Origin: an uncultured Gammaproteobacteria bacterium
GTDB taxonomy: Bacteria; Pseudomonadota; Gammaproteobacteria; Competibacterales; Competibacteraceae
Reading direction: 5' to 3'
NCBI GenBank assembly: GCA_963715845.1
Contig: CAVQSJ010000036.1
Span: forward strand, 47,710 to 111,709
DNA length: 64,000 nt
Of the stretch, positions 11,333-49,084 are shown piece by piece. The notes beneath the pieces are model-generated. The model was not told the DNA's origin, did no database searches, and saw only the letters and a list, made by a program, of their open reading frames with translations. A program made the position numbers and the translations under genes. Every line of letters starts with the position of its first letter. Positions within the stretch are counted from its first letter, which is position 1.

Positions 11333-11362
11333 AACCAGCCGATGCCACCAAGGTTCACCTGA

Positions 11363-13816
11363 ATGCGTAAACCCTCCTCGCCACCACGCATCCGTCTCGA
11401 TGAACTGCCCACCCGGGAACTGATCGCCCGTGGCGAAACTCTGCTGTCGGCCCATGACTACAAGGATGCCATCGAGGTCTACAAGCTGCTGCTGAAGCGC
11501 GAACCGCAAGCCGAGGCTGGCTGGCGCGGATCGTTGGCCACGGCGTATCTGGAACGGGCTAAGCAACTGGCCCAGAAAGCGATGTACCGGGAAGCCATCG
11601 TGCTCTGGGAGAATATCCCCAATCTGTGCGGTCAAGCTCCCCAACCCAACCTGTACATCGACTGGCTGCTCCGCACCGGCCAGTACGCCAAGGCGATCCG
11701 CGCCTATGTCAGTCATGCGGCCGCGTTGCCCGCCGCCGATCTCGTCGAACCGGAAACCCTGCTTGCCGCGCTGGTCCTGGCCGGACAAAAGGAGGGTCTC
11801 CAGGCGCTGTCCCCGGAAGCGTCGCTATGCCGACAGTTACCCTCGGCCCAGACCGCCCTGCGCGCCTATTGCCAGGGCGAGGTCGAAGCCGCGGTGCGCG
11901 AGCATCTGCAAAACATCCCCATTCGCTCGCCCTACCGGGATTTGCGCCAAGCGCTCGCGGGCCTGCTGAAGCTGGAAACCGACCCAGCCGGCGCCCTGCC
12001 CCTGATCGAGCGCATTCCCCCGACTTCCCCTTACCACGGCATCGCCGAAATCGTGCGCGCCTGCGCCGCCAGCGAACCCACTCGGGCAATACTGGCGCTC
12101 GAACCGTCCCAGCGCGAACTGGCCGGCGGCCTGCTCGGTCTGGATCAGCGCCAGCTCAAACTGCTCCGGGAATGGGCGCGGCTCGGCGAAAAAACCAGCG
12201 ATAAAGCGATGTTCGACTTCATCACCGCCAACCTGGCGGCGTTCGACCGCGAACAGGCCCGGCGGGCCTGTCTGGCGCTGCTTCCCGCCCATACGCCGGG
12301 GCAGTCCGTCTACACCAAGCTGTTCGGGCCGCTGCCGCCGTTCGAGGCGCATCGTCTCAAGGCGCTGCGGGCGGAACGCGATCACGATTTCAGCCGAGCC
12401 CTGCTCGACTGGCGAGCCTGCGTCGATCTGCTGAGCCAGGATGCCACCAACCCGGATAGCCGGTTGATGGCGGCACTCGTCCTGCGCCACATGGCGCAAC
12501 TGTCGGAGCGGGAGGAACCCGACTGGTACGAACCCCCTAATACCGCTTCTTATCTGGAAGAAAGCTTGCGGTTCGATCCGGATGATCGCGACACCTATTT
12601 GCAACTGGCCAAGCTGCACCGGCAGGCCGGCGATGATAAGGAGTACCACCAGTGGGTGGAACGCGCTGTCAAGCAATTCCCCGACGACCCCCAGGTGCTG
12701 TTGGCCGCGGTGGAAACCGCCACCGCCCGCAAGGCTTACAAGAAAGCCGCCGGTTTCGCCACGCGGGTATTGGAATTGGACCCGATCAACAGCAAGGCCC
12801 GCAATATTCTGATCAACTCTTATCTGGCCCACGCCCGTAAACAGATTCTGGCCGGTAAATACGCCCTGGCGGAAAAGGAACTGGACAGCGCCGGCCAACT
12901 GGAACGGGACAACGCCCGCAGTGGCGTCGTCGAACTCAACCGGGGCCTGCTGGCTTATCAGCAACACCAGCGCGAGCGCATGAAGCACTGGCTCCAGGAA
13001 GGTGCCCGCCTCGCCGGCAGCCCCCTGCTGGCGTGGCTGCGGCTGGCGGTGGAAGCCACCCGTCTGCGGCTGGAACCGGCCGACTTCCAGCGCGATCTCG
13101 AACTCGACGACCCGCGCAAACTGACCGTCGACCGCGCCGATCTGCTGGCCCTGACCCGACTGATCAACGCCTACCGGGAAGAAGGCGTCCCCGATCTCGG
13201 CGCGGCCCTGGAAGACGTGGAAAAGCCGCTGAAACGCGCCATCAAGCAACTGACCGATGAGGACGACCTGCTGTCGGTCTGCGAATGTCTGCACCAGGCG
13301 CCGCATCACGAGTTGCTGGAGTACGTCGCCACCCACGCGCTCGACCGCCAGCCGGGCCGGCCCCTGTTCGTCTACTACCAGATTTTTGGCCGCGCCGAAG
13401 GCGAGATTGACGACGTGAAGGATCGCGACTACGACCGCTTGAAGCACGCCCTGAAACAGGCCGCCGCCGCCAAGGACCACCGCGCCGCCACTCTGATCGA
13501 CCGGTTCCTCAGCCAGGGACCGTTTTCGTTGCCCTTCCCCAGGCCAAGCAGCGGCCCGTTGCCGCTGCCGCCCAAGCTGCGAAATGACATGGAAGACCTC
13601 CGCAAGGAACTGGAGCGGCTACCGCCGGCGCTGCGGGATCGAATGCTGGACCAGATACTGGACTCCTTGCCGCTCGACGACGATTTCCCGCCCGAAGCGC
13701 AAAGGGCCCTCATGAAGGCCCTGTTGCTTGGCGGTGGGAGTCTTGAGAACCTGCTGGATGAGTTACCGGACTTCCCGCTGCCGGGCCGGGGCGGACGCAA
13801 ACACCGCCGGAGATGA
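11363..13816 (+). CDS. large TPR-like repeat protein, hypothetical, first gene of the Hsp70 operon
   Basis: 817-aa ORF with good high-GC codon usage, a helical repeat-rich composition and a C-terminal Pro-rich, Arg-rich tail. Its stop overlaps the next gene's start. Confidence 0.6.
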   Translation: MRKPSSPPRIRLDELPTRELIARGETLLSAHDYKDAIEVYKLLLKREPQAEAGWRGSLATAYLERAKQLAQKAMYREAIVLWENIPNLCGQAPQPNLYIDWLLRTGQYAKAIRAYVSHAAALPAADLVEPETLLAALVLAGQKEGLQALSPEASLCRQLPSAQTALRAYCQGEVEAAVREHLQNIPIRSPYRDLRQALAGLLKLETDPAGALPLIERIPPTSPYHGIAEIVRACAASEPTRAILALEPSQRELAGGLLGLDQRQLKLLREWARLGEKTSDKAMFDFITANLAAFDREQARRACLALLPAHTPGQSVYTKLFGPLPPFEAHRLKALRAERDHDFSRALLDWRACVDLLSQDATNPDSRLMAALVLRHMAQLSEREEPDWYEPPNTASYLEESLRFDPDDRDTYLQLAKLHRQAGDDKEYHQWVERAVKQFPDDPQVLLAAVETATARKAYKKAAGFATRVLELDPINSKARNILINSYLAHARKQILAGKYALAEKELDSAGQLERDNARSGVVELNRGLLAYQQHQRERMKHWLQEGARLAGSPLLAWLRLAVEATRLRLEPADFQRDLELDDPRKLTVDRADLLALTRLINAYREEGVPDLGAALEDVEKPLKRAIKQLTDEDDLLSVCECLHQAPHHELLEYVATHALDRQPGRPLFVYYQIFGRAEGEIDDVKDRDYDRLKHALKQAAAAKDHRAATLIDRFLSQGPFSLPFPRPSSGPLPLPPKLRNDMEDLRKELERLPPALRDRMLDQILDSLPLDDDFPPEAQRALMKALLLGGGSLENLLDELPDFPLPGRGGRKHRRR

Positions 13817-20055: not shown

Positions 20056-21045
20056 ATGGCCGACTTTGATAGCGGCTACAAGCTGCTGTTTTCGCACCCA
20101 GAACTGGTGGCGGATTTGCTGCGCGGTTTCGTGCCGGAGCCGTGGGTGGCGGAGGTGGATTTCGCCACGCTGACGCCGGTCAAAGGCAGTTATGTCAGCG
20201 ACAGCCTGCGCCAGCGGCACGACGACGTGGTGTGGAAGGTTCGGCTGCGGGAGCAGTGGCTGTATGTCTATGTGGTCATCGAGTTTCAGTCGGAGCCGGA
20301 CCCGTTCATGGCGCTGCGGTTGCTGGTGTATGTGGGACTGCTGTATCAGGATTTGCTGCGGCGAGATGAATTGCCAGCGGACGGGCGGTTGCCGCCGGTG
20401 CTGCCGCTGGTGTTGTACAACGGCACACCGCCGTGGACGGGGGCCGTGGAGTTTGGAGAGTTGCTGACACCGGTGCCGCCGGGGCTGGAGCGTTATCAGC
20501 CACGTTTCCGGTATCTGTTGCTGGACGAAGAACGCTATCCGCCAATGGCGCTGGCGGGGATGGAGAATCTGGCGGCGGCGTTGTTCCGACTGGATCGGAG
20601 CCGCGGCTACGACGAGTTGCAGGCGGTGGTGGATGATCTGTTGGCGTGGCTGGCGACGCCCGAGCAACGATCCTTGCGGCGGGCGTTCGGCATCTGGCTG
20701 CGGCGGGTTTTTCTCCGACGACGACTGCCGGGCGTCGTTATCCCGGAGATTGATGACTTGCGCGAGGTGAAGGCGATGTTGGCGGAACGGTGGGAACAGT
20801 GGACGCGGGAATGGGAGCAGCGCGGTTTGCAGCAGGGTTTGCAGCAGGGACTCCAGCAGGGACTCCAGCAGGGACTCCAGCAGGGAGAAGCACGATTGCT
20901 GCTCAAACTATTGCGACAACGTTTTGGCGAGCTACCCCCTTGGGTGATGGAACGCTTGGCAGCGGCGGAGACCGCCCAGTTGGAAGCCTGGGTGGAGGAG
21001 ATTTTCAACGCGGCGAGCCTGGAGGAATTAATGGGGCGGGAATGA
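20056..21045 (+). CDS. Rpn-family recombination-promoting nuclease / putative transposase (PD-(D/E)XK, C-terminal DUF4351)
   Basis: N-terminus DSGYKLLFSHPELVADLLRGF (Transposase_31/YhgA-like), C-terminus RFGELPPWVMERLAAAETAQLEAWVEEIF, with a (GLQQ)n linker. Confidence 0.8.
   Translation: MADFDSGYKLLFSHPELVADLLRGFVPEPWVAEVDFATLTPVKGSYVSDSLRQRHDDVVWKVRLREQWLYVYVVIEFQSEPDPFMALRLLVYVGLLYQDLLRRDELPADGRLPPVLPLVLYNGTPPWTGAVEFGELLTPVPPGLERYQPRFRYLLLDEERYPPMALAGMENLAAALFRLDRSRGYDELQAVVDDLLAWLATPEQRSLRRAFGIWLRRVFLRRRLPGVVIPEIDDLREVKAMLAERWEQWTREWEQRGLQQGLQQGLQQGLQQGLQQGEARLLLKLLRQRFGELPPWVMERLAAAETAQLEAWVEEIFNAASLEELMGRE
20821..20882 (+). repeat. in-frame 12-nt tandem repeat encoding (GLQQ)x5 in the Rpn linker
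   Basis: ggtttgcagcag ggtttgcagcag ggactccagcag x3, seen directly. Confidence 0.8.
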
Positions 21046-21658
21046 CGTCCGGTTTCCTTAAACTGCCGGCGTATCTGAAGCTGTGAACGCTGGCTCGGTC
21101 GGAAATCAGTCACTTGCCTGAATTGAAAAAATTTGATTCCCGACCAATATGCTTGGTTGCATTGCATCATGGTTTCTGCTATAGGAAAATAACATTAGGA
21201 TTGAAACATAAAAACCAAACCTGCCGCGAGACAGGGGCAGAAAGTCACGGGTCTCGAACACAGACAGCCGGACTGCCGAGGATGACCAGCGTGAAGGTCG
21301 TACGAGGTAGTGCGGCTTTTTTGTTGTTGGATGAAGAAGAGTCTTTTCGATGAGACTGGCTGGGGATACTGCGATTCGGCTTTAGATGAGACTCCTAAGT
21401 GTCGCTGGCCGTCACTCCATTTGCTCTTCCCGGCTAGCGTGCTGCATAACTAAACCGTCGGAGTGTTATGCGGAAACCATATAATTATTTGTTAGGGCGG
21501 GTGGATTTTTCTCTCCATCCCGACCAACTGTCTGGGGTGGTAAGAACCGGCGCGTGGGGTGCGATAAGAGCGCCCGGCCGGTAGCAACGTGAACCCGCTG
21601 TGCGCTGTTTCAAGGCAGGGCGGCAGTTCGGAAACAGTGGTTTCTTGAAACCGCGTCA

Positions 21659-21719
21659 GCCCTAACTGAACGCTCCAGCCGACCGTGCTACGCCGGCGGC
21701 TGAGCTTAGATCGTTAGGC
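21659..21719 (+). repeat. attC site 0 (R'' GCCCTAAC ... R' GTTAGGC)
   Basis: Imperfect inverted repeat ctaactgaacgctccagccg / cggctgagcttagatcgttaggc. The cassette boundary G|TTAGGC falls at 21713/21714. Confidence 0.6.
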
Positions 21720-21843
21720 GACAGACCTGAACATCGCTAAGATAGACTTTGGACACGTTGCTGAAAGCCCCGCAGATCGGGTTCGAAATAAGGTTAGAAC
21801 GAGAGTACTAATCGCTGGTAAATTCAACGAAGGAGAATTGACA

Positions 21844-23055
21844 ATGAACATAAAAATCACTGCTACCGCCTCCGGAAGCCTCACTCCCCCGACGGCACCA
21901 CCGACTGACACTGTTACAAACGGAGATTTTCTGATCGGACCAAATCCTGGAGGCGCGATAACGGGTGATGGCCAAGATGAGGAGACAAGCTGGACATTCA
22001 AGTTTGCTGGTGACCCGAATTTTCCGCTTTTTTCACCTTCGCGGTCGTTGACATCCGCGCTTCTCACTTTGACTCTGACACCAAAAGACGGTTTGATCAC
22101 TACCGACGGCGTTTTGATAGAAGGGCTGGGAATCATTGGTGGTTCTACTCCTAATGCTCCAGAGATCCATGGCCTCCCCGTCGGTGTCACTAACACCATC
22201 CACATGCAGTTGCTCAACAGATTGCCTGGATACAGTTCTACTGCCATCCTTGGGGTCTTCAGCGCGGGGGGTGGCCAAATCCCAATGCGCTATGCCGACG
22301 ACTCTATCGTCTCTTCGGCCAAGCTCGAGCTGATTCAAGAATCCCCGGCTTTACAGTACGCAGCGAAATTCGTTTGCGGAAAATCGGCTGGTGAGGTTGT
22401 GGCGCCCGGAGTCTATTTCACCGCAGTTAACGTACACAATCCGACCTACACAGCGATCCGCTTTCGCATAAAGATCGCGGTCGCGTTGCCAGGGCTGAAG
22501 CCCGGCCCTGTGTCCAAGTTCTTTGATGCTAAACTCGGCCCGGATCAAGCGCTGGAAATCGACTGCCCGGACATCTTTAAGTACGCTGAAACTGAGGCCG
22601 ATTTCCTGAAGGGATTTGTCGTTATCGAGAGCGACGTCGAACTTGACGTGGTCGTCGTGTATACGGCGGCCGGCAGGGACGGACAGGTCGAAACGCTGCA
22701 CACTGAACGCGTCTCTCCACGACGCCTTGAACTTGGGCTGCCGGATTTGATCCCCGTTCCCGATGAAAATGGTTCCTTTTGCAAACGGAAAGATTTAACG
22801 TTAACGGTCACCGTCAAAAATCAAGGAACCGGCGGGGCAGGACCCTCAGTTACAGAGGTCGATTTCTTTGCTTTTGGTAAGGTTTCCATGCCAACGCCGC
22901 CATTGGGCCCAGGCGCGTCAGTGGATCTCCTCTTCCCAATACGACCTGGCTGCTTTAACCCAGATTGTGAGTTTCAAATTACCGTCGATGCCAACAACCA
23001 GGTAAATGAATCCAATGAAGGAAACAATATCGCCAAGGGTATATGCTTAGGCTAG
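21844..23055 (+). CDS. cassette 1: large hypothetical protein with a C-terminal CARDB (cell-adhesion-related) domain
   Basis: The C-terminus DLIPVPDENG...TLTVTVKNQGTGGAGPSVTEVDFF...VDANNQVNESNEGNNIA matches the CARDB consensus (...E.nE.NN). The N-terminal ~300 aa have no recognisable family. GAAGGAG RBS. No obvious signal peptide. Confidence 0.7.
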   Translation: MNIKITATASGSLTPPTAPPTDTVTNGDFLIGPNPGGAITGDGQDEETSWTFKFAGDPNFPLFSPSRSLTSALLTLTLTPKDGLITTDGVLIEGLGIIGGSTPNAPEIHGLPVGVTNTIHMQLLNRLPGYSSTAILGVFSAGGGQIPMRYADDSIVSSAKLELIQESPALQYAAKFVCGKSAGEVVAPGVYFTAVNVHNPTYTAIRFRIKIAVALPGLKPGPVSKFFDAKLGPDQALEIDCPDIFKYAETEADFLKGFVVIESDVELDVVVVYTAAGRDGQVETLHTERVSPRRLELGLPDLIPVPDENGSFCKRKDLTLTVTVKNQGTGGAGPSVTEVDFFAFGKVSMPTPPLGPGASVDLLFPIRPGCFNPDCEFQITVDANNQVNESNEGNNIAKGICLG

Positions 23056-23075
23056 CACGAATTCCGTGTAAACTT

Positions 23076-23142
23076 GCCTCTAACAAGTCATTTGAGCGGA
23101 CGCGGCAAAATCACGCCGTGCCGCTCAATTCAAGCGTTAGGC
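23076..23142 (+). repeat. attC site 1 (R'' GCCTCTAAC ... R' GTTAGGC)
   Basis: Internal pairing of gagcggacgcgg with ccgtgccgctc; lies 21 nt after the stop of the CARDB ORF. Confidence 0.65.
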
Positions 23143-23191
23143 GTTGAGTCGCACGGCGTACGCCATCACTGAACTGGGAGGAATCTCGATA

Positions 23192-23695
23192 ATGTTGGCA
23201 GACGATTTTATCTTCGACGACTTCAAGTTGGCGCTCGACTACCTCAAGGGGCAGTTTAGCCGCTTGTGGCAGCGATTTAACTTCTTCCTGACCGTCCAGA
23301 TGGCCCTATTTGGCTTTTTCGGTTGGTTGGCTTTCGAAAAGGATAATCTCCCGGCTACACGCCTAGTATGCATGTTAGGAGTTTTTATCTCCGCCCTGTG
23401 GTATATCGTCGCTGCGCAGGATCGAGCCCTTGTCGAAATCTATCGAGAACGGCTGGAGAAAACGGCGAAGAAACTCGCCCAGATTACCTCACTCAACAGT
23501 CCTGATTACGGCACTGACTTTGTCGGTATCGAGGCGCCCTCGCAGTTTCGAACTTGGTGCGTTGTTTGGTATTGTCGACCCCTTAGTATTACCATCCTAC
23601 CGGTTTGGCTTGCCCTGCTGCATCTGTTAGTTTGGATGGCCCTTCTGGCTGTAGGTACCGATTGGTTGGAGGCTATTAGCCGAAAACCTACTTAG
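23192..23695 (+). CDS. cassette 2a: hypothetical multi-pass membrane protein
   Basis: GGGAGG RBS followed by an ATG; 3-4 hydrophobic helices (FFLTVQMALFGFFGWLAF..., VCMLGVFISALWYIVAA..., ILPVWLALLHLLVWMALLAV). Confidence 0.55.
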   Translation: MLADDFIFDDFKLALDYLKGQFSRLWQRFNFFLTVQMALFGFFGWLAFEKDNLPATRLVCMLGVFISALWYIVAAQDRALVEIYRERLEKTAKKLAQITSLNSPDYGTDFVGIEAPSQFRTWCVVWYCRPLSITILPVWLALLHLLVWMALLAVGTDWLEAISRKPT

Positions 23696-23762
23696 CCGAT
23701 TAGTCGAGTGACGCATCTCTAGACAAGCGTCGCACACTTCAATACGATTAGGAGGAGATAAA

Positions 23763-24137
23763 ATGAGTGCTGAATCCGGGTTGATCGAGTTGGTTCGTCA
23801 ACTTATCGAGGCAGAGAACGAGCATGACAGGGAGAAAGCCGAGCCCATCTTGGCAGAGGACTTCACTGCGATTACTAGAGCAAGGGGCGAAGAGCAGAAC
23901 CGAGACGCTCTACTAGAGGAAATCGCCAATCCTAAAAACCCAAACCTCCTCCGCAAGCTCGACCCTGGGGCTTGGGAGCGGGAATCTGGGGACCTTGGTG
24001 TGGTGAGAAGTTTCATCACGATGATGGACCGAACAAATCCCCAAGCCGAGCCTGGAAGGTTTCGGAACATCCACGTGTTTCAGAGGCAACAGGGGCGATG
24101 GCTGTGTGTGACCTGGCAAGTGACTGGCCTGAAATAG
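23763..24137 (+). CDS. cassette 2b: SnoaL-like / DUF4440 (NTF2-fold) protein
   Basis: AGGAGG RBS; ~124 aa with the acidic N-terminal helix pattern LVRQLIEAENEHD...FTAI typical of DUF4440. Confidence 0.55.
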   Translation: MSAESGLIELVRQLIEAENEHDREKAEPILAEDFTAITRARGEEQNRDALLEEIANPKNPNLLRKLDPGAWERESGDLGVVRSFITMMDRTNPQAEPGRFRNIHVFQRQQGRWLCVTWQVTGLK

Positions 24138-24178
24138 GCCTGCACGTGCTGGTTCATATCGATGTCGATTCACTCCCA

Positions 24179-24242
24179 GCCTAACTTGGCACTGCACCGG
24201 ACCGCTCCCTTCGGTCGCGGCCGGTGAGTTTCGCCGTTGGGC
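24179..24242 (+). repeat. attC site 3 (R'' GCCTAAC ... R' GTTGGGC)
   Basis: agcctaacttggcactgcaccggaccgctcccttcggtcgcggccggtgagtttcgccgttgggc. It shares its architecture with the site at 26681 (ctgcaccggac...ccggtgag). Confidence 0.65.
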
Positions 24243-24326
24243 ACCATGGGTGACCTGAGAGCCGCGGCTGAAATGCCATTCGTCTCGCTGCAACCATCCT
24301 AGGATGGGATGACAAAGGAGGTGGTC

Positions 24327-24593
24327 ATGCGCACTGTAGTCATCATTGTTTTGGGTTTTGTCCTGTGGGGAGGTTGCCTGGGAGTTGCAAAGCTATTGGC
24401 CAGTTCGAGTAGTTCAGCAATGACAACGGCGACCCTAGCGTTTCTCGGGTTCTGGTTCGTCGCAGCAGCGGCCAACATGTGGATTGGTGTATCGCAAGCC
24501 GGGTACTCGTTTCTGGAAGAACTGCCAATCTTTTTGTTGATCTTCTTGCTGCCCTCTGCGGTGGCAGTATTTGTCAAGTGGAAGTTCCTCTAA
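24327..24593 (+). CDS. cassette 3a: small two-TM membrane protein
   Basis: AAGGAGG RBS 5 nt upstream of the ATG at 24327 (an alternative ATG lies at 24309); hydrophobic segments VVIIVLGFVLWGG and IFLLIFLLPSAVAVFV. Confidence 0.5.
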   Translation: MRTVVIIVLGFVLWGGCLGVAKLLASSSSSAMTTATLAFLGFWFVAAAANMWIGVSQAGYSFLEELPIFLLIFLLPSAVAVFVKWKFL

Positions 24594-24637
24594 GCGCGAC
24601 TACTCACTCGCGCCACAACTCGTGAAGGAGAAGCGTC

Positions 24638-25393
24638 ATGAGCAAGCACACACTGAAAGGGAAAGTTGCCGTCATCGGTGGCGGCGCCAAGAATCTGGGC
24701 GGCCTCCTCAGTCGCGAGTTCGCCAAAGGCGGTGCCAAGGTCGTTGTGCACTACCACAGCAACACCACCCGTCCGGACGCGGATGCCACAGTCAACGCCA
24801 TCAAGGATCTCGGCGGTGATGCGTATGCTACCCAGGGCGATTTGACCAAGCCCGCCAACGTCACCGCTTTGTTCAAATCCGCCAAGGATCGCTTCGGTGG
24901 CATCGACATCGCCGTCAACACTGTCGGTATGGTATTGCGTAAGCCGATCGTGGAGACTACCGAGGAAGAGTTCGACACGATGTTTGATGTCAACGCCAAG
25001 TCGGCGTACTTCTTCATCAAGGAAGCCGGCATCCATCTGAACGACGGCGGCAAGATCATCACCATCGTGACATCGCTACTGGCAGCATTCACGGACGGTT
25101 ACTCGACGTACGCTGGTGGCAAGGCTCCGGTGGAGCATTTCACGCGTGCTGCGGCAAAAGAGTTCGCCTCGCGCGGTATCTCGGTCACCTGCATTGGGCC
25201 GGGTCCGATGGACACGCCGTTCTTCTACGGACAGGAAACACCCGAGCGTGTGGCCTATCACAAGTCTCAGGGCATGGGCGGCCAACTGACCCAAATCGAA
25301 GACATCGTGCCTATCGTACGATTCCTAGCCACCGAGGGCTGGTGGATCACCGGACAGACCATATTCGCCAACGGCGGATACACAACACGATAG
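24638..25393 (+). CDS. cassette 3b: SDR-family short-chain dehydrogenase/reductase
   Basis: GKVAVIGGGAKNLGG (Rossmann fold), NTVG, and the catalytic S...YxxxK motif (YSTYAGGKAPVEHFTRAAAKE). Confidence 0.85.
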   Translation: MSKHTLKGKVAVIGGGAKNLGGLLSREFAKGGAKVVVHYHSNTTRPDADATVNAIKDLGGDAYATQGDLTKPANVTALFKSAKDRFGGIDIAVNTVGMVLRKPIVETTEEEFDTMFDVNAKSAYFFIKEAGIHLNDGGKIITIVTSLLAAFTDGYSTYAGGKAPVEHFTRAAAKEFASRGISVTCIGPGPMDTPFFYGQETPERVAYHKSQGMGGQLTQIEDIVPIVRFLATEGWWITGQTIFANGGYTTR

Positions 25394-25403
25394 CGATGAT
25401 GGT

Positions 25404-25461
25404 GCCCAACAAAAGCATGCAGCCGACGCGCTACGCGCGCGGCTGATGCTAATCGTTAGGC
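25404..25461 (+). repeat. attC site 4 (R'' GCCCAAC ... R' GTTAGGC)
   Basis: Pairing of gcagccgacgcgc with gcgcgcggctg; lies 11 nt after the SDR gene stop. Confidence 0.7.
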
Positions 25462-25503
25462 GTCACAGAAACGACGGTTCATCTACCACCTGAAAGGAAT
25501 GCC

Positions 25504-25914
25504 ATGGCCACGCTGCCAAGTCGCTCCAAAGAAAATCCGTGGAAGCTGAAGACGCCGCCGGGCACTTCTGAGTACACGATGCATACCGACGAGAAGGACG
25601 GCAAGAAGATCCTCGTCTGCACGGTGGGCAGCACAGTGCTGCACTACGACGCGCGGTGCATTAACGACCTGCACGCCATGCTCAAGAAGGCAGGCGACTG
25701 GGTGGAACTTGGCGGAGCCGATGAACAGAAGCCAGCCAAAGAAGGAACGGTAGAGGCCTGGGGGCGTTCTGAAGCGAACCCGGTCGGTGGCTGGTACGGC
25801 CTGAAGAAGGGCCTGCGCGGCCGCTTCGGAGTGTATGTACCTCCGCTCATGGAGGAGCTCGGGCTATGTGAGCTTGAGCACAACGCCAAGAACAATAGAA
25901 TGCGCGCCAAGTGA
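25504..25914 (+). CDS. cassette 4: hypothetical protein (136 aa)
   Basis: GAAAGGAA RBS-like sequence; single ORF between attC sites 4 and 5; no family recognised from sequence alone. Confidence 0.5.
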   Translation: MATLPSRSKENPWKLKTPPGTSEYTMHTDEKDGKKILVCTVGSTVLHYDARCINDLHAMLKKAGDWVELGGADEQKPAKEGTVEAWGRSEANPVGGWYGLKKGLRGRFGVYVPPLMEELGLCELEHNAKNNRMRAK

Positions 25915-25929
25915 GCGAAGTGACGCCGG

Positions 25930-26001
25930 ACATCGGCTTGCAGCGGCGCCGAAAACAGCGGTGTTGCCGCTGTTTCATCCCGCTGAAGCCGGGCGTTAGC
26001 C
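25930..26001 (+). repeat. attC site 5 (R' GTTAGCC; a strong central hairpin aacagcgg/ccgctgtt)
   Basis: Pairing of cggcttgcagcgg with ccgctgaagccg. The R' core deviates by one base from GTTRRRY. Confidence 0.55.
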
Positions 26002-26020
26002 GACAAAAGAGGAGTCACAC

Positions 26021-26437
26021 ATGATCGAACCAAAAAGCTCATTTCCCGTATTTACCGTTAAGAATCTCGATGCAGCGAAATCCTTCTACACAGAGAACCT
26101 TGGCTTTGATGTTGTCTTTTCGGGTGATTGGTATATTCACTTGGTTTCGAAGTCGGGCGTTCAGATTGGTTTTCTGTTGCCAGACCAACCCACCCAACCA
26201 CCAATATTCCAAAAACCATACTTTGGCGAAGGCGTTATTTTCAGCTTGGAAGTGGAAGACGCAGACACCGCTTTCGCAGTAGTAAAATCGAAATCACTTA
26301 ATATCGTGCTTGAATTACGGTCCGAGGATTGGGGGCAGCGGCACTTCTGTATCCAAGACCCGAACGGGATATATTTGGACATTGTTCAGTCTTTTGAGCC
26401 AACCGAAGAATATCAGAGTGATTATGTCTCGGAATAA
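26021..26437 (+). CDS. cassette 5a: VOC / glyoxalase-bleomycin-resistance family protein
   Basis: GAGGAG RBS; FTVKNLDAAKSFYTENLGFDV...HFCIQDPNGIYLDIV shows the characteristic VOC beta-alpha-beta-beta-beta repeats. Confidence 0.75.
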   Translation: MIEPKSSFPVFTVKNLDAAKSFYTENLGFDVVFSGDWYIHLVSKSGVQIGFLLPDQPTQPPIFQKPYFGEGVIFSLEVEDADTAFAVVKSKSLNIVLELRSEDWGQRHFCIQDPNGIYLDIVQSFEPTEEYQSDYVSE

Positions 26438-26482
26438 AAACCTCACAGACCTCAAAATATCGGCAAGAAAATTGCCGGTCGG

Positions 26483-26686
26483 TTGAATGAAGTCGGGATC
26501 TTTTCCGAAGACGATTTAAGGCTCGTTGGTGCTGTTGGCGCACATCGCATGATCAAGGAGAGGCATCCGGATGAGACATTGCCGGTCTGTTACTACCTGT
26601 ATTCATTTGAAGGGGCTTTGACTGACAAGCATTGGGATGAAATCGGTGAGCATAGAAAACAGCAGCTTAAGGCACAAATCGGCTAA
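26483..26686 (+). CDS. cassette 5b: TfoX C-terminal-domain protein, probably 5'-truncated by a frameshift
   Basis: An ATG at 26424 opens a frame that terminates after 20 codons, while the TfoX_C homology (NIGKKIAGRLNEVGIFSEDDLRLVGAVGAHRMIKE) continues in the +1 frame. A one-base deficit in the aaaa run at ~26452 would explain this. Confidence 0.5.
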   Translation: MNEVGIFSEDDLRLVGAVGAHRMIKERHPDETLPVCYYLYSFEGALTDKHWDEIGEHRKQQLKAQIG

Positions 26687-26752
26687 CAAGGCGCTGCACC
26701 GGACGGCAATTCCGCTGCGCTTCATTGCCGCCGGTGAGCTTTGACGTTAGGC
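26681..26752 (+). repeat. attC site 6 (R'' GGCTAAC containing the TfoX_C stop codon ... R' GTTAGGC)
   Basis: ggcTAAcaaggcgctgcaccggacggcaattccgctgcgcttcattgccgccggtgagctttgacgttaggc. The next ORF's ATG lies 4 nt after the site. Confidence 0.7.
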
Positions 26753-26755
26753 CCC

Positions 26756-27214
26756 ATGAATCATCATCCAGGTGGGCGTCCGCGAAGTCGTCGGGTCTTG
26801 CTCGCTGCCGCGCTCTACTTCGGCATCGTGTTCGGGGTCGGCGTCTTGCTCGGCGCCGTGCGCGCGCCCTTGCTTGTCCCACGCCTCGGCGAGCGCGTTG
26901 CCGAACTCGCGGAGATGCCGCTCATGTTCGTCGCCATCTTCCTGGCCGCCGGCCACGTCGTCAGAAAATACGGCGCCTCAGTGGCGCCGCTGGGCTGGGT
27001 GCGGGTCGGCGCCCTATCCCTGGCGTTCCTCGTGGCCGCCGAGCTGCTTCTGGCGGTTGCGCTGGCGGGTCGCGGCATCGGCGAGTACATCGCCGGTCGA
27101 GACCCGGTCTCTGGCTCGGTGTACCTTGCCATGCTGGTGGTGTTCGCGGCGATGCCGTGGTTGCGGCGTAGGCTGGGCTCCGGCCTTTCGGGCGGGCAGT
27201 CACACGGGGCCTAA
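26756..27214 (+). CDS. cassette 6: hypothetical membrane protein (about 4 TM segments)
   Basis: The ATG lies 4 nt after attC 6; segments LLAAALYFGIVFGVGVLLGAV, MFVAIFLAAGHVV, LSLAFLVAAELLLAVALAG, LAMLVVFAAMPWL. Confidence 0.55.
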   Translation: MNHHPGGRPRSRRVLLAAALYFGIVFGVGVLLGAVRAPLLVPRLGERVAELAEMPLMFVAIFLAAGHVVRKYGASVAPLGWVRVGALSLAFLVAAELLLAVALAGRGIGEYIAGRDPVSGSVYLAMLVVFAAMPWLRRRLGSGLSGGQSHGA

Positions 27215-27340
27215 CGATCGTGTCGTTGGAACGTCACCCCGGACGATGAAAGTCCGTACTTTCATGGCAACCCCTCGCTCGAACGGACCTGCAACGGCAT
27301 GCCGCTGCGGTCCGCCTCGCTCGCACGCTCGGCGTTCAAA
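27209..27340 (+). repeat. possible long degenerate attC site 7 (R'' GCCTAAC with an embedded stop codon; R' degraded to GTTCAAA)
   Basis: The R'' core is canonical and there are internal hairpins (atgaaagtccgtactttcat; cggcatgccg), but the R' core is non-canonical, so the boundary is uncertain. Confidence 0.35.
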
Positions 27341-27352
27341 CAGGAAAGGCCT

Positions 27353-28468
27353 ATGGCCATGATGACGAGAAGAACGTTCATCACCACTGCCGCCGCTACG
27401 GGTCTGGGTGCCACAGGAGTTCTTGCTTTCCACTCCTTCCGCGAGGGCCGCGCGGAGTATGAGCAGGCCGTGAAGCAGATCTGGCGTCATGGTGAGCGCG
27501 GTGCGAGCGACGCGCCCGCCGTACTGCGCGAACTGGTGCGCTACGCCACCCTCGCACCGTCCAGTCACAACACCCAGTGCTGGAAGTTCGGGCTGGGCGA
27601 CCGGTCGGTTTCCATCCTGCCCGATTATCTACGCCGGTGTCCGATCGTCGATCCAGACGATCACCACCTCTTTGTCAGCCTCGGCTGTGCCGCCGAGAAC
27701 CTCGTGCAGGCAGCGTCCGCCCTGGGCTTTCGCGGCGAGGCCGTATTCAATACGGGAACGAACGAGTCGTTGGAAATCTCCCTGGTGCGCGCACCGGCGG
27801 TGCGAACGCCGCTGTTCGAGGCCATCCCGCGCCGGCAGTCGACCCGGGCTGAATTTGATGCCAAGCCCCTTTCAAACGACGAATTGAGGCGTCTGGAAAC
27901 GGCCGGCTCGGGAAACGGCGTCCGGGTTCACCTGCTCGCGGATCGACGGGCGATGGAGAATGTGCTCGACTTCGTGGTTCAGGGAAACACCGCACAGATG
28001 CGGGACCCGGCCTTCGTGCGCGAACTCAAAGGCTGGTTACGTTTCAACGGCGGGCAGGCCGCGAGACAGGGCGACGGACTGTTTTCGGGTTCTTCCGGCC
28101 ACCCGACGGCCCCCGGTTGGCTGGGCGGCCTGCTGTTTGATGGGTTCTTTACCGAAAAGGCCGAAAACGACCAGTACGCGCGACAGGTGCGAAGCTCCGC
28201 CGGCATCGCGGTATTGGTTTCAGAGCTGGAGGACAAGCATCACTGGATCGAGGTGGGTCGTGCCTTTCAACGGTTTGCGTTGCAGGCAACGGCGATGGCT
28301 GTTCGAACCGCTCACCTCAATCAACCAGTGGAAGTCGCATCACTCAGGCCACAGTTCGCCGAATCAATCGGAATTACGAGTGGCAGGCCTGATCTTGTCA
28401 TTCGGTTTGGTCGTGGTCCCGAGATGCCCAGATCCCTGCGCCGCTCAGTCGATGCAGTTATCATTTGA
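27353..28468 (+). CDS. cassette 7a: Tat-secreted nitroreductase-family (Acg-like) oxidoreductase
   Basis: AGGAAAGG RBS; twin-arginine signal MTRRTFITTAAATGLGATGVLA; two nitroreductase-like halves. Confidence 0.7.
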   Translation: MAMMTRRTFITTAAATGLGATGVLAFHSFREGRAEYEQAVKQIWRHGERGASDAPAVLRELVRYATLAPSSHNTQCWKFGLGDRSVSILPDYLRRCPIVDPDDHHLFVSLGCAAENLVQAASALGFRGEAVFNTGTNESLEISLVRAPAVRTPLFEAIPRRQSTRAEFDAKPLSNDELRRLETAGSGNGVRVHLLADRRAMENVLDFVVQGNTAQMRDPAFVRELKGWLRFNGGQAARQGDGLFSGSSGHPTAPGWLGGLLFDGFFTEKAENDQYARQVRSSAGIAVLVSELEDKHHWIEVGRAFQRFALQATAMAVRTAHLNQPVEVASLRPQFAESIGITSGRPDLVIRFGRGPEMPRSLRRSVDAVII

Positions 28469-28490
28469 TGAGTCCCGAGGAGGCAAACCC

Positions 28491-29120
28491 ATGCAGCACC
28501 ATCCATTCATCAAAATTCTCCTGGCTTCTCTCGTGGCTGTTGTGGTGCTGGCGGGCTGCGCCAGCACGCCGCCCCCACGGTCCGGGTTCCTGGTCGATTA
28601 TCCCGATCTCAAACCGGATCCTGGCAATCCGCAGTTGCTCTGGTGGGAAAAGCCCGACTTTGACTGGAAGCGCTATCAGAAACTGATGATCGATCCGGTG
28701 GTGATGTATTACGACCCGAAAGCCAAAAATCAGGAAATCCGACCTGACGACCTGAATCGGCTGGCCGATGAGTTTCGAGACGTCGTCGTTGCTGAGCTAG
28801 GGAATCGTTTTCCTGTGGTTAATGCACCAGGCCGGGATGTTCTGCGTGTACGCGCCGCCATTACCGAAATCATTCCCGCAAGCCCGGCGCTGAACGTGGT
28901 GACGACGCTGGTCGCGTTTGTACCGCTCGACATGGGGGGTGCGGCGATCGAGGCCGAGTTCATCGATTCAATGACCAACGAACGTGTGGCGGCCATGGTG
29001 GAGCGCAAGCTAGGCACGCCTTTTGATTTGAAATCCGGCTTCACTTCGCTGGGTCATGCCAGAGCTTCGTTCAAGTCCTGGGCAGCGGAACTGAAACGAG
29101 CGCTCGAGACCGGGCCGTGA
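28491..29120 (+). CDS. cassette 7b: DUF3313-family lipoprotein
   Basis: GAGGAGG RBS; lipobox LAGC in MQHHPFIKILLASLVAVVVLAGCAS; DUF3313-like body. Confidence 0.65.
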   Translation: MQHHPFIKILLASLVAVVVLAGCASTPPPRSGFLVDYPDLKPDPGNPQLLWWEKPDFDWKRYQKLMIDPVVMYYDPKAKNQEIRPDDLNRLADEFRDVVVAELGNRFPVVNAPGRDVLRVRAAITEIIPASPALNVVTTLVAFVPLDMGGAAIEAEFIDSMTNERVAAMVERKLGTPFDLKSGFTSLGHARASFKSWAAELKRALETGP

Positions 29121-29148
29121 GAACCCCGATACAGAATAAACAATAAAA

Positions 29149-29210
29149 TGCCTGACAACAGCATCCAGCGGACGCGCCAAAAGCGCGCGCCGCTGATGCT
29201 TGGCGATATA
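29149..29210 (+). repeat. degenerate attC site 8 (R' decayed to GATATAC)
   Basis: cagcggacgcgcc aaaa gcgcgcgccgctgatgct parallels site 4 (gcggctgatgctaatcGTTAGGC), but the core is mutated. Confidence 0.4.
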
Positions 29211-29304
29211 CATAACTCAATTGACTGGGTTGATAAACTCGAAGACCTTATAATTAATAATTAGGGAAAGGTGACATATTTACTTTCTGGTGGTGTGCCA
29301 CTTT

Positions 29305-29368
29305 TCCTAACAACGGCTCGCAGCGGAGCGCTCTTTTCAGTCGCGTCCGCTGAAGCCTAGCGTTCTAC
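29305..29368 (+). repeat. terminal attC-like site 9 (R'' TCCTAAC ... R' GTTCTAC), preceded by an ORF-less AT-rich spacer at 29211-29304
   Basis: Pairing of ctcgcagcggagcgc with gtcgcgtccgctgaagc. It is the last recognisable site before the flanking minus-strand genes. Confidence 0.45.
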
Positions 29369-29516: not shown

Positions 29517-31052
29517 TCACTCCCGCACCCAGGCAAAGCCGCTGATGTTGCGCTGTTCCCGGCTGAAGTTGATCCCGATCAGCGTGACCCGCTGCCCGGC
29601 GTAGCGCTGGTGGTAACCGCGCGCCTTGATCTGTTCCAGCGCCGAATCAGGCCCGGCCACCTCATCCAGCTTGCACTCCAGCAGCCAGACGCGATCCTGA
29701 AAGCGAATCGCCAGATCCACCTGCCCCCGATGGCTCACCTCCTCTGGCCGTACATCCACGCCCAGCGCGGCGAAGTAGCAATACACCACCGAAGCATAAT
29801 AACCCTCGTATTCCGCCAACCGGTTGCGGCGATACCAGTCGTGTGGAATCGAAGCGAAAAAGGCGTGCAGCGCCTGATGCAGCGCCTCGGGATCGTCCTG
29901 GCGCAGGGCTTCGGCCAGGCGATCCCGGGCGACCTGACCTTGGCGGGCATTGGGAACGTAACGTTGCAATTGCGCCCTGGGCAAGCTCAGGCGCACTTCG
30001 CGGTTGGGATAAGACAATCGATAGCGGTACCCGCTCATATCCCAACGCCGCTCCTGGATAGTCAAATAACCGGTTTGAAACAGCAATGCCTCGGGTTCGA
30101 TGGTATCGACATCAAAGCTCCCGAGAATCGCTTCATCGGTCTCTACCCCGTCCAGTTCCGCCAAAGTGATCTGGCGTCGTTCCAACACCTGGAACAAAAA
30201 ACTGGGCGTCCCCGTCTCGAACCAGTGGGACCGGAATTCCCGGCTGTCGAGATAGAGCAACACATCAAACGGGTTGTAGACCGGCTCACCCAGGAAGTTA
30301 TAACCGTTGTACCACTCGCGCACCCGCGCCACGTCCACCCCGTCCAGCCAGTCGGCAAACACCGTGACCAGTTCGTCGTGGGTGTAGCCGCACAGCGTCG
30401 CGTAGCGCGGATCGAGGGTGACGTCCTTGAGATTGTTCAGCCCCGAAAACAGCGAGACCTTGGAAAACTTGCTCACGCCGGTAAGCAACACGAACCGCAG
30501 ATGGGCATCCTGTCCTTTGATCACCGAATAAAAATTCCGCAAGCCGTCGCGCATCACCCGCGCCACGTCCGGCCGTTCCAGATTATCCAGAATCGGCTTG
30601 TCGTATTCGTCGATGAGAATCACCACCCGTTCGCCGAACTGATGATGCGCGGCTTCGATCAGGCGGGCAAACGCCAAATGAATTTCATCCTGCTGACAGG
30701 TCACATCAAATTTTTCGTAATGTTTCCGTAACTGGTCCCAGAGCGTGGCATTTAATCCCTCCGGTTGTTGCAACACCCCGCCGCCCAAATCAACGCGCAC
30801 CACCGGACAGGCGCGGTCCCAGTCCCAGTGTTGCTCCATATACAAGCCGGCAAAAGAGGCGCGGTGACCGGCGAAGGCTTCGGCGAGGGTATCGACCAGC
30901 AGACTCTTGCCGAAGCGGCGCGGCCGGGCCAGAAAGTAATACCGCCCCTCATCGACCAGCCGGGCGATGAGGGGGGTTTTATCGACATAGGCGTAGTTCT
31001 CCGCCAGAAAGTCGGCAAAGGTCTGAATGCCAATCGGGAGTTTTTTCTTCAT
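29517..31052 (-). CDS. predicted AAA-ATPase (PF09820-like) fused to a PD-(D/E)XK nuclease domain (PDDEXK_9/DUF1703)
   Basis: N-terminus IQTFADFLAENYAYVDKTPLI...FLARPRRFGKSL; C-terminal conserved nuclease-like region. Confidence 0.7.
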   Translation of the reverse strand: MKKKLPIGIQTFADFLAENYAYVDKTPLIARLVDEGRYYFLARPRRFGKSLLVDTLAEAFAGHRASFAGLYMEQHWDWDRACPVVRVDLGGGVLQQPEGLNATLWDQLRKHYEKFDVTCQQDEIHLAFARLIEAAHHQFGERVVILIDEYDKPILDNLERPDVARVMRDGLRNFYSVIKGQDAHLRFVLLTGVSKFSKVSLFSGLNNLKDVTLDPRYATLCGYTHDELVTVFADWLDGVDVARVREWYNGYNFLGEPVYNPFDVLLYLDSREFRSHWFETGTPSFLFQVLERRQITLAELDGVETDEAILGSFDVDTIEPEALLFQTGYLTIQERRWDMSGYRYRLSYPNREVRLSLPRAQLQRYVPNARQGQVARDRLAEALRQDDPEALHQALHAFFASIPHDWYRRNRLAEYEGYYASVVYCYFAALGVDVRPEEVSHRGQVDLAIRFQDRVWLLECKLDEVAGPDSALEQIKARGYHQRYAGQRVTLIGINFSREQRNISGFAWVRE

Positions 31053-31103
31053 GGTGCTTGGCGTCTGGCCCAAACCGATGTTCCGCGGGAACGACAGCGT
31101 GGC

Positions 31104-48396: not shown

Positions 48397-49084
48397 ATCG
48401 GGTCGGGCTGACGGGATTGCGCCCGTCAGCCCTCCCACACCACCGGACATGCGGTTTTCCGCATCCGGCGGTTGAGCCCAGCGGGCTTAGCCCGCGAGCA
48501 CCCACGGTAGAGTGAATTACTGATGTCTACCGTGTTGCTCATTGAACCTCTTCTGACGTCTGTGCTCGCTGTCCGCCGCGACTCGATGGGCACGTGCCGC
48601 CCCTCCGCAGGAATCCACCTGCTCGGCTTGGCCCGCCGGTCCGGGAGCTGCCGCAGTTGCCGCTCCGAACCCGTGTCGCCCGTCTCCGTGCCGCTGGGAA
48701 CGGATGCAGACTGTGGTCCTCTCGTGACTCTTCGGCCCTTCGCTCGACCGGCCTTTCGGCCGGTGTCCACACTACTACGGCCTCTGCTGACTCCTGGCAC
48801 GCTCTCACGCGTCAGGTCTCCCCGAGTAAGAACAGATACTTTCGACCCGTGCCGCCAGGCTCTACCGGATACGTCTTTCGGTGACGGTTGGATTTCGCGT
48901 TCCCTAGCACGCTCATCGCCCGTACCCGGCCTCACTGCCTGTTCGTGTTCCTGCGGTCGTGTCTTGGCTACGCCCTTCTTTCAGCTTGGCCTCGCGGCTT
49001 CCACCTTGGGTTTCGCTACGCTTCTCGTCACTCTTCGCGGTTACCTCCTCTCAGGTAACAAGTACATGCCCATGTCGGGCACAC
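48397..49084 (-). mobile_element. ORF-less bacterial group IIC intron ribozyme (domains I-VI; ~688 nt)
   Basis: On the minus strand the 5' end GUGUGCCCGACAUGGGCAUG matches the group II GUGYG + CCCxGAxAxGGG start. Internal blocks (CUUACUCGGGGAGACCUG...AGUCAGCAGAGGCCGUAGUA; GGAACACGAAC) resemble IIC introns such as the O. iheyensis intron. There are many GNRA-closed helices. Domain V is ACCGCCGGAUGCGG-AAAA-CCGCAUGUCCGGUGGU, with a 2-nt bulge and a CGC triad, and is followed by GGUGUG. Domain VI is a hairpin followed by ...GACCCGAU. No RT ORF is present on either strand. Confidence 0.55.

Follow-up and report, generated by a model that had tools for sequence, protein, structure and literature searches.

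The 64,000-nt stretch of DNA analysed here (hereafter the window; contig CAVQSJ010000036.1, positions 47,710 to 111,709) comes from an uncultured gammaproteobacterium of the Competibacteraceae, from wastewater. Between positions 21660 and 29368 it carries a series of integron attC sites interleaved with small genes, and this locus is very probably a chromosomal integron cassette array that has no integrase close by; such a locus is called a cluster of attC sites lacking an integron integrase (CALIN). The attC architecture, the organisation into cassettes, the lack of an integrase in the window and the exchange of one cassette at the G/TT crossover point (the slash marks the position between G and TT in the R' core) are all matters of direct observation. 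A preliminary description of this DNA, made from the sequence alone, had proposed an integron-type cassette array. The proposal is borne out by the geometry of the sites, their extrahelical bases, their covariation, the recognition of class 1 attC sites by a model built from this locus and the absence of such sites outside the array.

Eight plus-strand sites, spread over 21660-29368, are built on the same plan. Each has R'' and R' cores, a spacer of 5/6 nt and an L box that consists of 3 bp, a bulged base, 6 bp and a bulged T (bottom strand). In the following list, R1 denotes a covariance model trained on these eight sites alone.

21660-21719, plus strand: attC site S1; R'' CCCTAAC, R' GTTAGGC; perfect L box; R1 55.8 bits (training member).
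23078-23142, plus strand: attC site S2; R'' CTCTAAC, R' GTTAGGC; R1 66.1 bits (training member).
24179-24242, plus strand: attC site S3; R'' GCCTAAC, R' GTTGGGC; R1 67.2 bits (training member).
25404-25461, plus strand: attC site S4; R'' GCCCAAC, R' GTTAGGC; R1 68.3 bits (training member).
25925-26001, plus strand: attC site S5; degenerate R'' GCCGGAC, R' GTTAGCC; L box intact; fold z -3.94; R1 55.7 bits (training member).
26681-26752, plus strand: attC site S6; R'' GGCTAAC, which contains the stop codon of the TfoX_C gene, R' GTTAGGC; R1 66 bits (training member).
29150-29211, plus strand: attC site S8; R'' GCCTGAC, R' G+ATATAC; fold z -3.72; R1 62.8 bits (training member).
29305-29368, plus strand: attC site S9, the final site; R'' TCCTAAC, R' GTTCTAC; fold z -1.88; R1 62.8 bits (training member).

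The cores GTTAGGC (at 21713, 23136, 25455 and 26746), GTTGGGC (at 24236) and GTTAGCC (at 25995) lie exactly where the preliminary description had placed them, as do the TAA stop codons inside R''-type cores at 26684-26686 and 27212-27214. The sites are heterogeneous: they range from 58 to 77 nt in length and are on average 59% identical in pairwise comparison. The largest gap between them, from S6 to S8, is 2.4 kb and so remains within the 4 kb used for clustering attC sites. Ahead of S1 there are about 340 nt without an open reading frame (ORF).

A strict scan of both strands of the window required an R'' ending in AAC, a spacer of 4-6 nt, an L'' of 3 + 1 + 6 nt whose 9 paired bases match an L' lying 5-7 nt before GTT, and at most two R-box mismatches. 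It returns five sites with a perfect L box (S1-S4 and S6), all on the plus strand and all within 21660-26752. Not one such site appears in 40 first-order Markov shuffles, and their mean number is 0.5 if one mismatch is allowed. The bare heptamer GTTRGGC, by contrast, is not enriched, with 17 copies found in the window against 19.5 expected. It is thus the composite site, rather than the heptamer, that goes beyond chance. S5 escapes the scan solely because AAC is absent from its R''. Inverse cores of the form AAC...GTTRGGC with no more than two R-box mismatches are present in S1-S4 and S6, whereas they are partly degenerate in S5 (GCCGGAC), S8 (G+ATATAC) and S9 (GTTCTAC). The sequence of S8 diverges directly after the crossover G. 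In S9, the part of R' past GTT is not complementary to R'', as expected of a junction between array and chromosome. The cores had been described earlier as decaying smoothly to the right; this gradient is not found, since the R'' of S5, a site halfway along the array, is already degenerate.

The bottom strands were folded as single-stranded DNA, with 200 shuffles for each site. An L-box stem with two single-base bulges, both confined to the 3' ('') arm, is seen in all eight folds. The first bulged base follows 3 bp of the L box; the second comes after another 6 bp and is a T, except in S5, where it is a G. Extrahelical bases of this kind had been suggested as a check on the array, and the check comes out in its favour. 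Pairing of the R boxes, together with the unpaired 6/5-nt spacer, is part of the minimum-energy fold in half of the sites (S1, S2, S4 and S6). None of the 200 shuffles matches the fold in six of the eight cases; S6 is matched by 7 shuffles and S9 by 10. The best folder is S4 (-22.6 kcal/mol, z -5.6), while S1 reaches -16.8 kcal/mol (z -3.85), with its two bulges on the '' arm.

When the eight sites are aligned, the L-box helix proves to be 98.8% paired, with two-sided changes in 6 of its 10 pairs. Its covariation score is 0.363, which none of 500 shuffles reaches; the shuffles score 0.113. When the register of the alignment is slid, pairing falls from 89% to 23-41%. Structure is therefore kept while sequence varies, at 59% identity, which is a hallmark of attC sites. 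The layout of the window sites is, base for base, that of the aadA1/aadA7-type attC, GTCTAAC AATTC GTT C AAGCCG A ... CGGCTT AAC TCAAGC GTTAGAT, a reference sequence verified at 100% identity in 1962 plasmid records.

The reciprocal comparison leads to the same result. R1 was applied, with its filters off, to the class 1 integron of plasmid pSE08-00436-1, which reads intI1-dfrA1-aadA1-qacEdelta1-sul1. It recognises attC-aadA1 (7001-7060) with 43.3 bits (E 6e-12) and attC-dfrA1 (6110-6204) with 22.1 bits (E 4e-5), in both cases with exact ends and on the correct strand; the next match has 12.3 bits. Over the 64-kb window, R1 scores nothing above 18 bits outside the array. It gives one match in 498 kb of unrelated metagenome loci, and in 294 kb of related loci (20 from Competibacteraceae) a single locus scores, which is described below. 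Given this specificity, the attC-like motif is not a repeat family dispersed over the approximately 0.85 Mb of searchable sequence, and the fear that it might be a repeat spread outside cassette contexts is removed to that extent.

Mobility is documented for one cassette, the third, which encodes a 94-aa membrane protein and an SDR oxidoreductase (24237-25455). The exact SDR protein is found on two short metagenome contigs (JGI 3300045572 and Logan SRR11449212), both of which match the window over this cassette at 99.8-100% identity. Homology starts at 24234/24235, which is the G/TT crossover point in the R' core of S3. Upstream of this breakpoint each contig carries a different attC, both ending in GTTGGGC. 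The same cassette thus lies behind different attC sites and is joined to them at G/TT, which indicates that this two-gene unit moves as a cassette with the canonical crossover. Cassettes 1 and 2 also follow one another, as they do in the window, on a further metagenome contig (Logan ERR11561443).

Two candidate sites were rejected. About nine attC cassettes had been counted in the preliminary description; eight sites have been validated, while the 130-bp candidate S7 (27210-27340, plus strand) fails both on its fold and with R1. It folds without R- or L-box pairing, into unrelated hairpins, and R1 gives it at most 10 bits, just on 27209-27231. Its left half has the attC layout (GCCTAAC GATCG TGT C GTTGGA A), but a matching L' is missing and R' reads GTTCAAA. 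S7 is probably a broken junction or a fused site. The other rejected candidate, S0 (21082-21162), is situated between the Rpn gene and the riboswitch described below and possesses an attC-like L box with a C bulge; it is at chance level, however, since a relaxed scan yields about 31 hits per 64 kb, and R1 does not score it.

The junction at 27209-27340, behind the gene for a 152-aa membrane protein, is peculiar in its own right. The attC-like left half is followed by two hairpins, at 27246-27267 and 27285-27313, the second of which is bordered by an imperfect direct repeat, CCTCGCTCG(A/C)ACG. This junction may be a small insertion or two fused sites.

The genes between the sites fit a cassette array. 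Twelve ORFs, all on the plus strand, occupy 21.8-29.1 kb, and their Pfam families are mutually unrelated, in agreement with the earlier view of small, unrelated and co-oriented ORFs. The annotated features of the array body are as follows.

21844-23055, plus strand: cassette 1, CARDB-domain protein of 403 aa (Pfam CARDB, E 6e-12).
23192-23695, plus strand: cassette 2, 8xMP membrane protein (Pfam; also gene calls in Logan ERR11561443).
23763-24137, plus strand: cassette 2, DUF4440/SnoaL-like protein (Pfam; also gene calls in Logan ERR11561443).
24309-24593, plus strand: cassette 3, membrane protein of 94 aa (ORF).
24638-25393, plus strand: cassette 3, SDR oxidoreductase (Pfam adh_short_C2, E 2e-45).
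25504-25914, plus strand: cassette 4, DUF6855 protein (Pfam, E 7e-71).
26021-26437, plus strand: cassette 5, VOC/glyoxalase protein (Pfam).
26483-26686, plus strand: cassette 5, TfoX_C (Pfam; match begins at profile position 20).
26756-27214, plus strand: membrane protein of 152 aa (Pfam search).
27353-28468, plus strand: nitroreductase with a twin-arginine (Tat) signal (Pfam).
28491-29120, plus strand: DUF3313 lipoprotein (Pfam).
29212-29304, plus strand: ORF-less, AT-rich cassette body (GC 0.34).

The distance from stop codon to attC is 0-41 nt in seven units. The ORF-less spacer noted earlier near the right end is the body at 29212-29304, between S8 and S9. In the interval from S6 to S8 there are three ORFs with no valid attC between them; TRRTF and LAGC motifs can be read from the sequence in the ORF interval 26756-29120. 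The frame of TfoX_C is broken at an A-run near 26454: the start codon (ATG at 26425) overlaps the stop codon of the VOC gene, and after the break reading resumes in the frame of TTG 26483, which extends to 26686. TfoX_C is either a pseudogene or the product of a homopolymer sequencing error.

GC content among the cassettes ranges from 0.34 to 0.69, whereas the flanks are at 0.61-0.63. Three cassette proteins were looked up, CARDB among them; each is a singleton cluster at 90% identity among approximately 15 billion proteins. The spread in GC and the singleton proteins together fit independently acquired cargo. Exact-protein look-ups with seven window proteins gave no match, probably through differences in the recorded start codons. 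CARDB homologues were found in 80 loci, on soil and rhizosphere contigs that align solely to residues ~165-403 (up to 82% identical). None of these relatives stands in a cassette context, and the N-terminal 165 residues had no match in that scan. As a guide to the left junction of the array, or to an integrase, the CARDB loci are uninformative.

No integrase gene accompanies the array, as the preliminary description had stated. Tyrosine-recombinase motifs (RHSFA, LGH...Y boxes) are absent from all six frames of the window, and a tblastn search with IntI1 over its whole length has a best E value of 0.32; these searches did not extend to the intI_Cterm and PF00589 profile HMMs on six-frame translations. 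The same motif and IntI1 searches reveal no recognisable intI pseudogene within 10 kb of the array. There is neither an attC site nor an integrase in the 21 kb to its left or the 34 kb to its right. Thus nowhere in the 64-kb window does an intI gene adjoin the array, as it would in a complete integron. attI and the Pc promoter are too poorly conserved to be looked for by sequence search.

A mechanism that would account for this organisation can be outlined. Each cassette consists of a mostly promoterless ORF or ORF pair, followed by its attC. On the bottom strand, an attC forms a hairpin in which the R and L boxes are paired and some bases are extrahelical; this hairpin is what an integron integrase recognises and cuts, between the A and the C that complement G/TT. 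The cassettes would have been captured singly, by IntI-mediated recombination. Because sites and ORFs run from left to right, the attI/intI side is inferred to have been on the left, as proposed before. The array would later have been parted from its integrase by deletion or rearrangement, or else an integrase encoded elsewhere would have assembled it at a secondary GTT site. Structurally, S1-S4 and S6 appear intact and could still be excisable if IntI were supplied in trans. The right-hand part of the array is probably frozen, since the R boxes of S5, S8 and S9 are damaged and the S7 junction is broken. The damage to S5, S7, S8 and S9, taken with the TfoX_C frameshift, points to decay.

The label "CALIN-like" used in the preliminary description is correct under the definition of Cury et al. 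2016 (PMC4889954), which calls for at least two attC sites with no intI nearby, by criteria of 4 kb and 10 kb. The 279 CALINs of that survey have a mean of 5 sites, and 83% of them have fewer than six. Their cargo is mostly unknown and unrelated to resistance, and 95% have no recognisable intI pseudogene nearby (PMC4889954). The window array resembles them in lacking a nearby intI and in carrying cargo of mostly unknown function, with no resistance genes. With 8 sites it is slightly larger than the published mean. It does not differ in kind, although it is peculiar in its upstream cyclic di-GMP (c-di-GMP) riboswitch (see below), its multi-ORF intervals and its broken internal junction.

The attC sites of class 1 integrons (aadA1, dfrA1) have an identical layout: R'' (7) - 5 nt - 3 bp - bulge - 6 bp - bulged A (T on the bottom strand) - variable stem - 6 bp - 3 bp - 6 nt - R' (7). 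In the window sites, however, the first bulged base is C, T or G (top strand) and not only C. Unlike a class 1 integron, the locus comprises no IntI1, attI1, Pc, 3' conserved segment or resistance cargo, and its host is an uncultured environmental bacterium of the Competibacteraceae. With sedentary chromosomal integrons, such as the Vibrio superintegron and its VCR repeats, the array shares its chromosomal location and its strain-specific, ORFan-type cargo; moreover, decayed attC-like sites lie on the corresponding side of Band_7 in a related metagenome-assembled genome (MAG). Sedentary integrons are recognised by more than 19 attC sites or by species-wide presence, and by homogeneous sites. 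The window array, in contrast, has 8 heterogeneous sites and no integrase, and it is missing at the syntenic position in most relatives.

The array lies in a variable part of the genome. The host belongs, to judge from its proteins, to the Candidatus Competibacter / Contendobacter group of the Competibacteraceae: the Band_7 protein encoded nearby shares 84-93% identity with proteins from Candidatus Competibacter MAGs, and ComB clusters with proteins of Candidatus Contendobacter. The flanking ORFs encode ComB, PAS, Rpn, AAA-ATPase and Band_7 proteins (Pfam). The two nearest to the array are:

20056-21045, plus strand: left flank, Rpn/YhgA-like PD-(D/E)XK protein (Transposase_31 + DUF4351; Pfam).
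29517-31073, minus strand: right flank, AAA-ATPase_like + PDDEXK_9 protein (Pfam).

By blastn, synteny with 20 Competibacteraceae loci ends or resumes at ~31100, and synteny with a Contendobacter contig ends at 18599, which is the end of ComB. These breaks delimit a variable region of 12.5 kb (18.6-31.1 kb) that contains the array and is bordered by conserved sequence on both sides. In 19 of the 20 related loci, the syntenic side of Band_7 does not carry the array. Indeed, the related Competibacteraceae and Contendobacter loci have no array next to Band_7 or ComB, save for two decayed sites in MAG MFD09964.bin.1.117 (CAVOGC010000008.1), the one related locus scored by R1. These attC-like sites, at 20095-20153 (26.2 bits) and 20895-20955 (16.7 bits), flank small genes, one of them for a VOC/glyoxalase protein. 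The Band_7 orthologue is 8 kb away, and with respect to it the two sites share the side and the orientation of the window array. The sequence of that locus stops too early for its array to be followed. The two sites hint that cassette arrays recur in the neighbourhood of Band_7.

Several features of the surroundings are recorded here for their own sake. Just ahead of its DUF4351 domain, the Rpn/YhgA-like gene contains tandemly repeated CAGCAGGGACTC-type units (20826-20885, plus strand), which are in frame and give Q-Q-G-L repeats. On the Candidatus Contendobacter contig (GCA_029624675.1, JARSSP010000041.1), the gene next to ComB (10948-13050) encodes a large surface-type protein of the Flg_new_2/CARDB kind, after which the contig stops. 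Far to the right in the window, at 48397-49001 on the minus strand, there are group II intron RNA domains (RF02001 D1-D4, 95 bits; RF00029 D5-D6, 44.5 bits), approximately 360 nt apart. No reverse-transcriptase ORF is seen with them on the minus strand, and the intron looks ORF-less or truncated. It adjoins a low-GC segment at 49-52 kb, in which a DDE_Tnp_1 transposase is encoded (49786-51144, minus strand). Another DDE transposase (DDE_Tnp_1 + DDE_Tnp_1_assoc; 59354-60724, minus strand) is situated in a sharply low-GC island (0.43-0.44 at 59-61 kb versus ~0.65 around it).

Certain observations weigh against the classification as an integrase-less cassette array. One claimed attC site, S7, fails validation, and three of the validated sites (S5, S8 and S9) have imperfect R boxes. 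Most integron cassettes hold one ORF, whereas four of the inter-attC intervals here hold two or three. No attC-type family scores in an Rfam scan of the window, either in gathering or in E-value mode. The search for an integrase spans the 64-kb window, out of a contig of 238 kb, and one might be encoded elsewhere in the genome. Finally, the history of the array and its present competence for recombination are inferred from sequence.

The possibility of an integrase elsewhere leads to the strongest of the alternatives. The locus may be part of a complete, working integron whose integrase is encoded beyond the window: a rearrangement may have moved it along the same chromosome, or it may reside on a different replicon. 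In that case the array would be an active reservoir and not a relic. We regard this as a tenable, if somewhat improbable, account. Five sites are structurally intact, and the third cassette occurs in other wastewater contexts, so that the community has an integrase that acts on these attC sites. Furthermore, about half of the CALINs of Cury et al. reside in replicons that also encode IntI (PMC4889954). However, the 21 kb and 34 kb on either side of the array are devoid of attC and integrase, and the TfoX_C frameshift together with the damaged S5, S7, S8 and S9 indicates decay. Even with a distant integrase, the locus would still be classed as a CALIN under the 4-kb and 10-kb criteria (PMC4889954).

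An unlikely alternative is that the array never stood beside an attI site. Individual cassettes, or a multi-cassette circle, would have been inserted at a secondary chromosomal GTT by the off-target route of Loot et al. Off-target insertion at GTT is documented (bioRxiv 10.1101/2022.09.11.507474), and it is listed among the origins of CALINs (PMC4889954). The last R', GTTCTAC, keeps GTT alone, as would a junction between attC and a secondary site, but a hybrid last R' is also normal at the distal end of an ordinary array. No intI pseudogene is detectable beside the array, which agrees with such an origin. On the other hand, the left junction has not been located, the candidate S0 being at chance level and unscored by R1.

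That the palindromes are gene-end hairpins (intrinsic terminators) or repeats akin to repetitive extragenic palindromes (REP) or miniature inverted-repeat transposable elements (MITE) is hardly credible: they are indeed GC-rich hairpins directly after stop codons, and bare GTTRGGC does occur at chance frequency, but no T-tract follows the hairpins and a terminator scan does not report them, their conserved AAC/GTT cores, fixed spacers and one-arm bulges are unlike terminators, R1 built from them recognises true class 1 attC sites, the rest of the window and 19 of the 20 related loci contain none of them, and a cassette junction falls at G/TT.

To the left of the array, the preliminary description had placed an Rpn-family gene, which is present, and a 600-bp non-coding stretch, which proves to hold a riboswitch.

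21204-21320, plus strand: c-di-GMP-I riboswitch aptamer (21204-21281) with intrinsic terminator; 49.5 bits with Rfam RF01051, against a gathering score of 35.

The same element scores 53.2 bits with RF03167. Its terminator has a U-tract and uses the 3' strand of the aptamer as its own 5' arm. This shared strand suggests an ON switch. The riboswitch is co-oriented with the array and lies 340 nt upstream of S1. Since there is no ORF for approximately 520 nt on its 3' side, the next gene is that of the first cassette (CARDB). Transcription from the riboswitch may continue into the array, so that the first cassette is the regulated gene; the riboswitch may instead be what an ORF-less cassette carries, or an orphan whose own gene is missing. 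That it is a promoter-proximal control element of the integrase-less array, or else the cargo of an ORF-less cassette ending at S1, is a speculative proposal to which we give a low probability. As a control element it would work as follows. Upon binding of c-di-GMP, the aptamer would form and sequester the 5' arm of the terminator; transcription would then pass through attC S1 into the CARDB cassette and beyond, and a second-messenger switch would in this manner stand in for the missing Pc promoter. No riboswitch was found in the Candidatus Contendobacter contig, in MAG MFD09964.bin.1.117 or in Logan ERR11561443, and no literature was found that links c-di-GMP riboswitches with integron cassettes.

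CALINs are well known, and the locus leaves the understanding of integrons unchanged. It extends the catalogue of CALINs as reservoirs of rare accessory genes. We found no literature describing integrons in Competibacter or the Competibacteraceae, and the locus documents integron cassettes in this family of glycogen-accumulating bacteria, which are abundant in wastewater plants. At least one of its cassettes circulates between arrays in wastewater metagenomes. The riboswitch, if it is a true controller, would offer a testable answer to how cassettes are expressed in integrase-less arrays that lack Pc.

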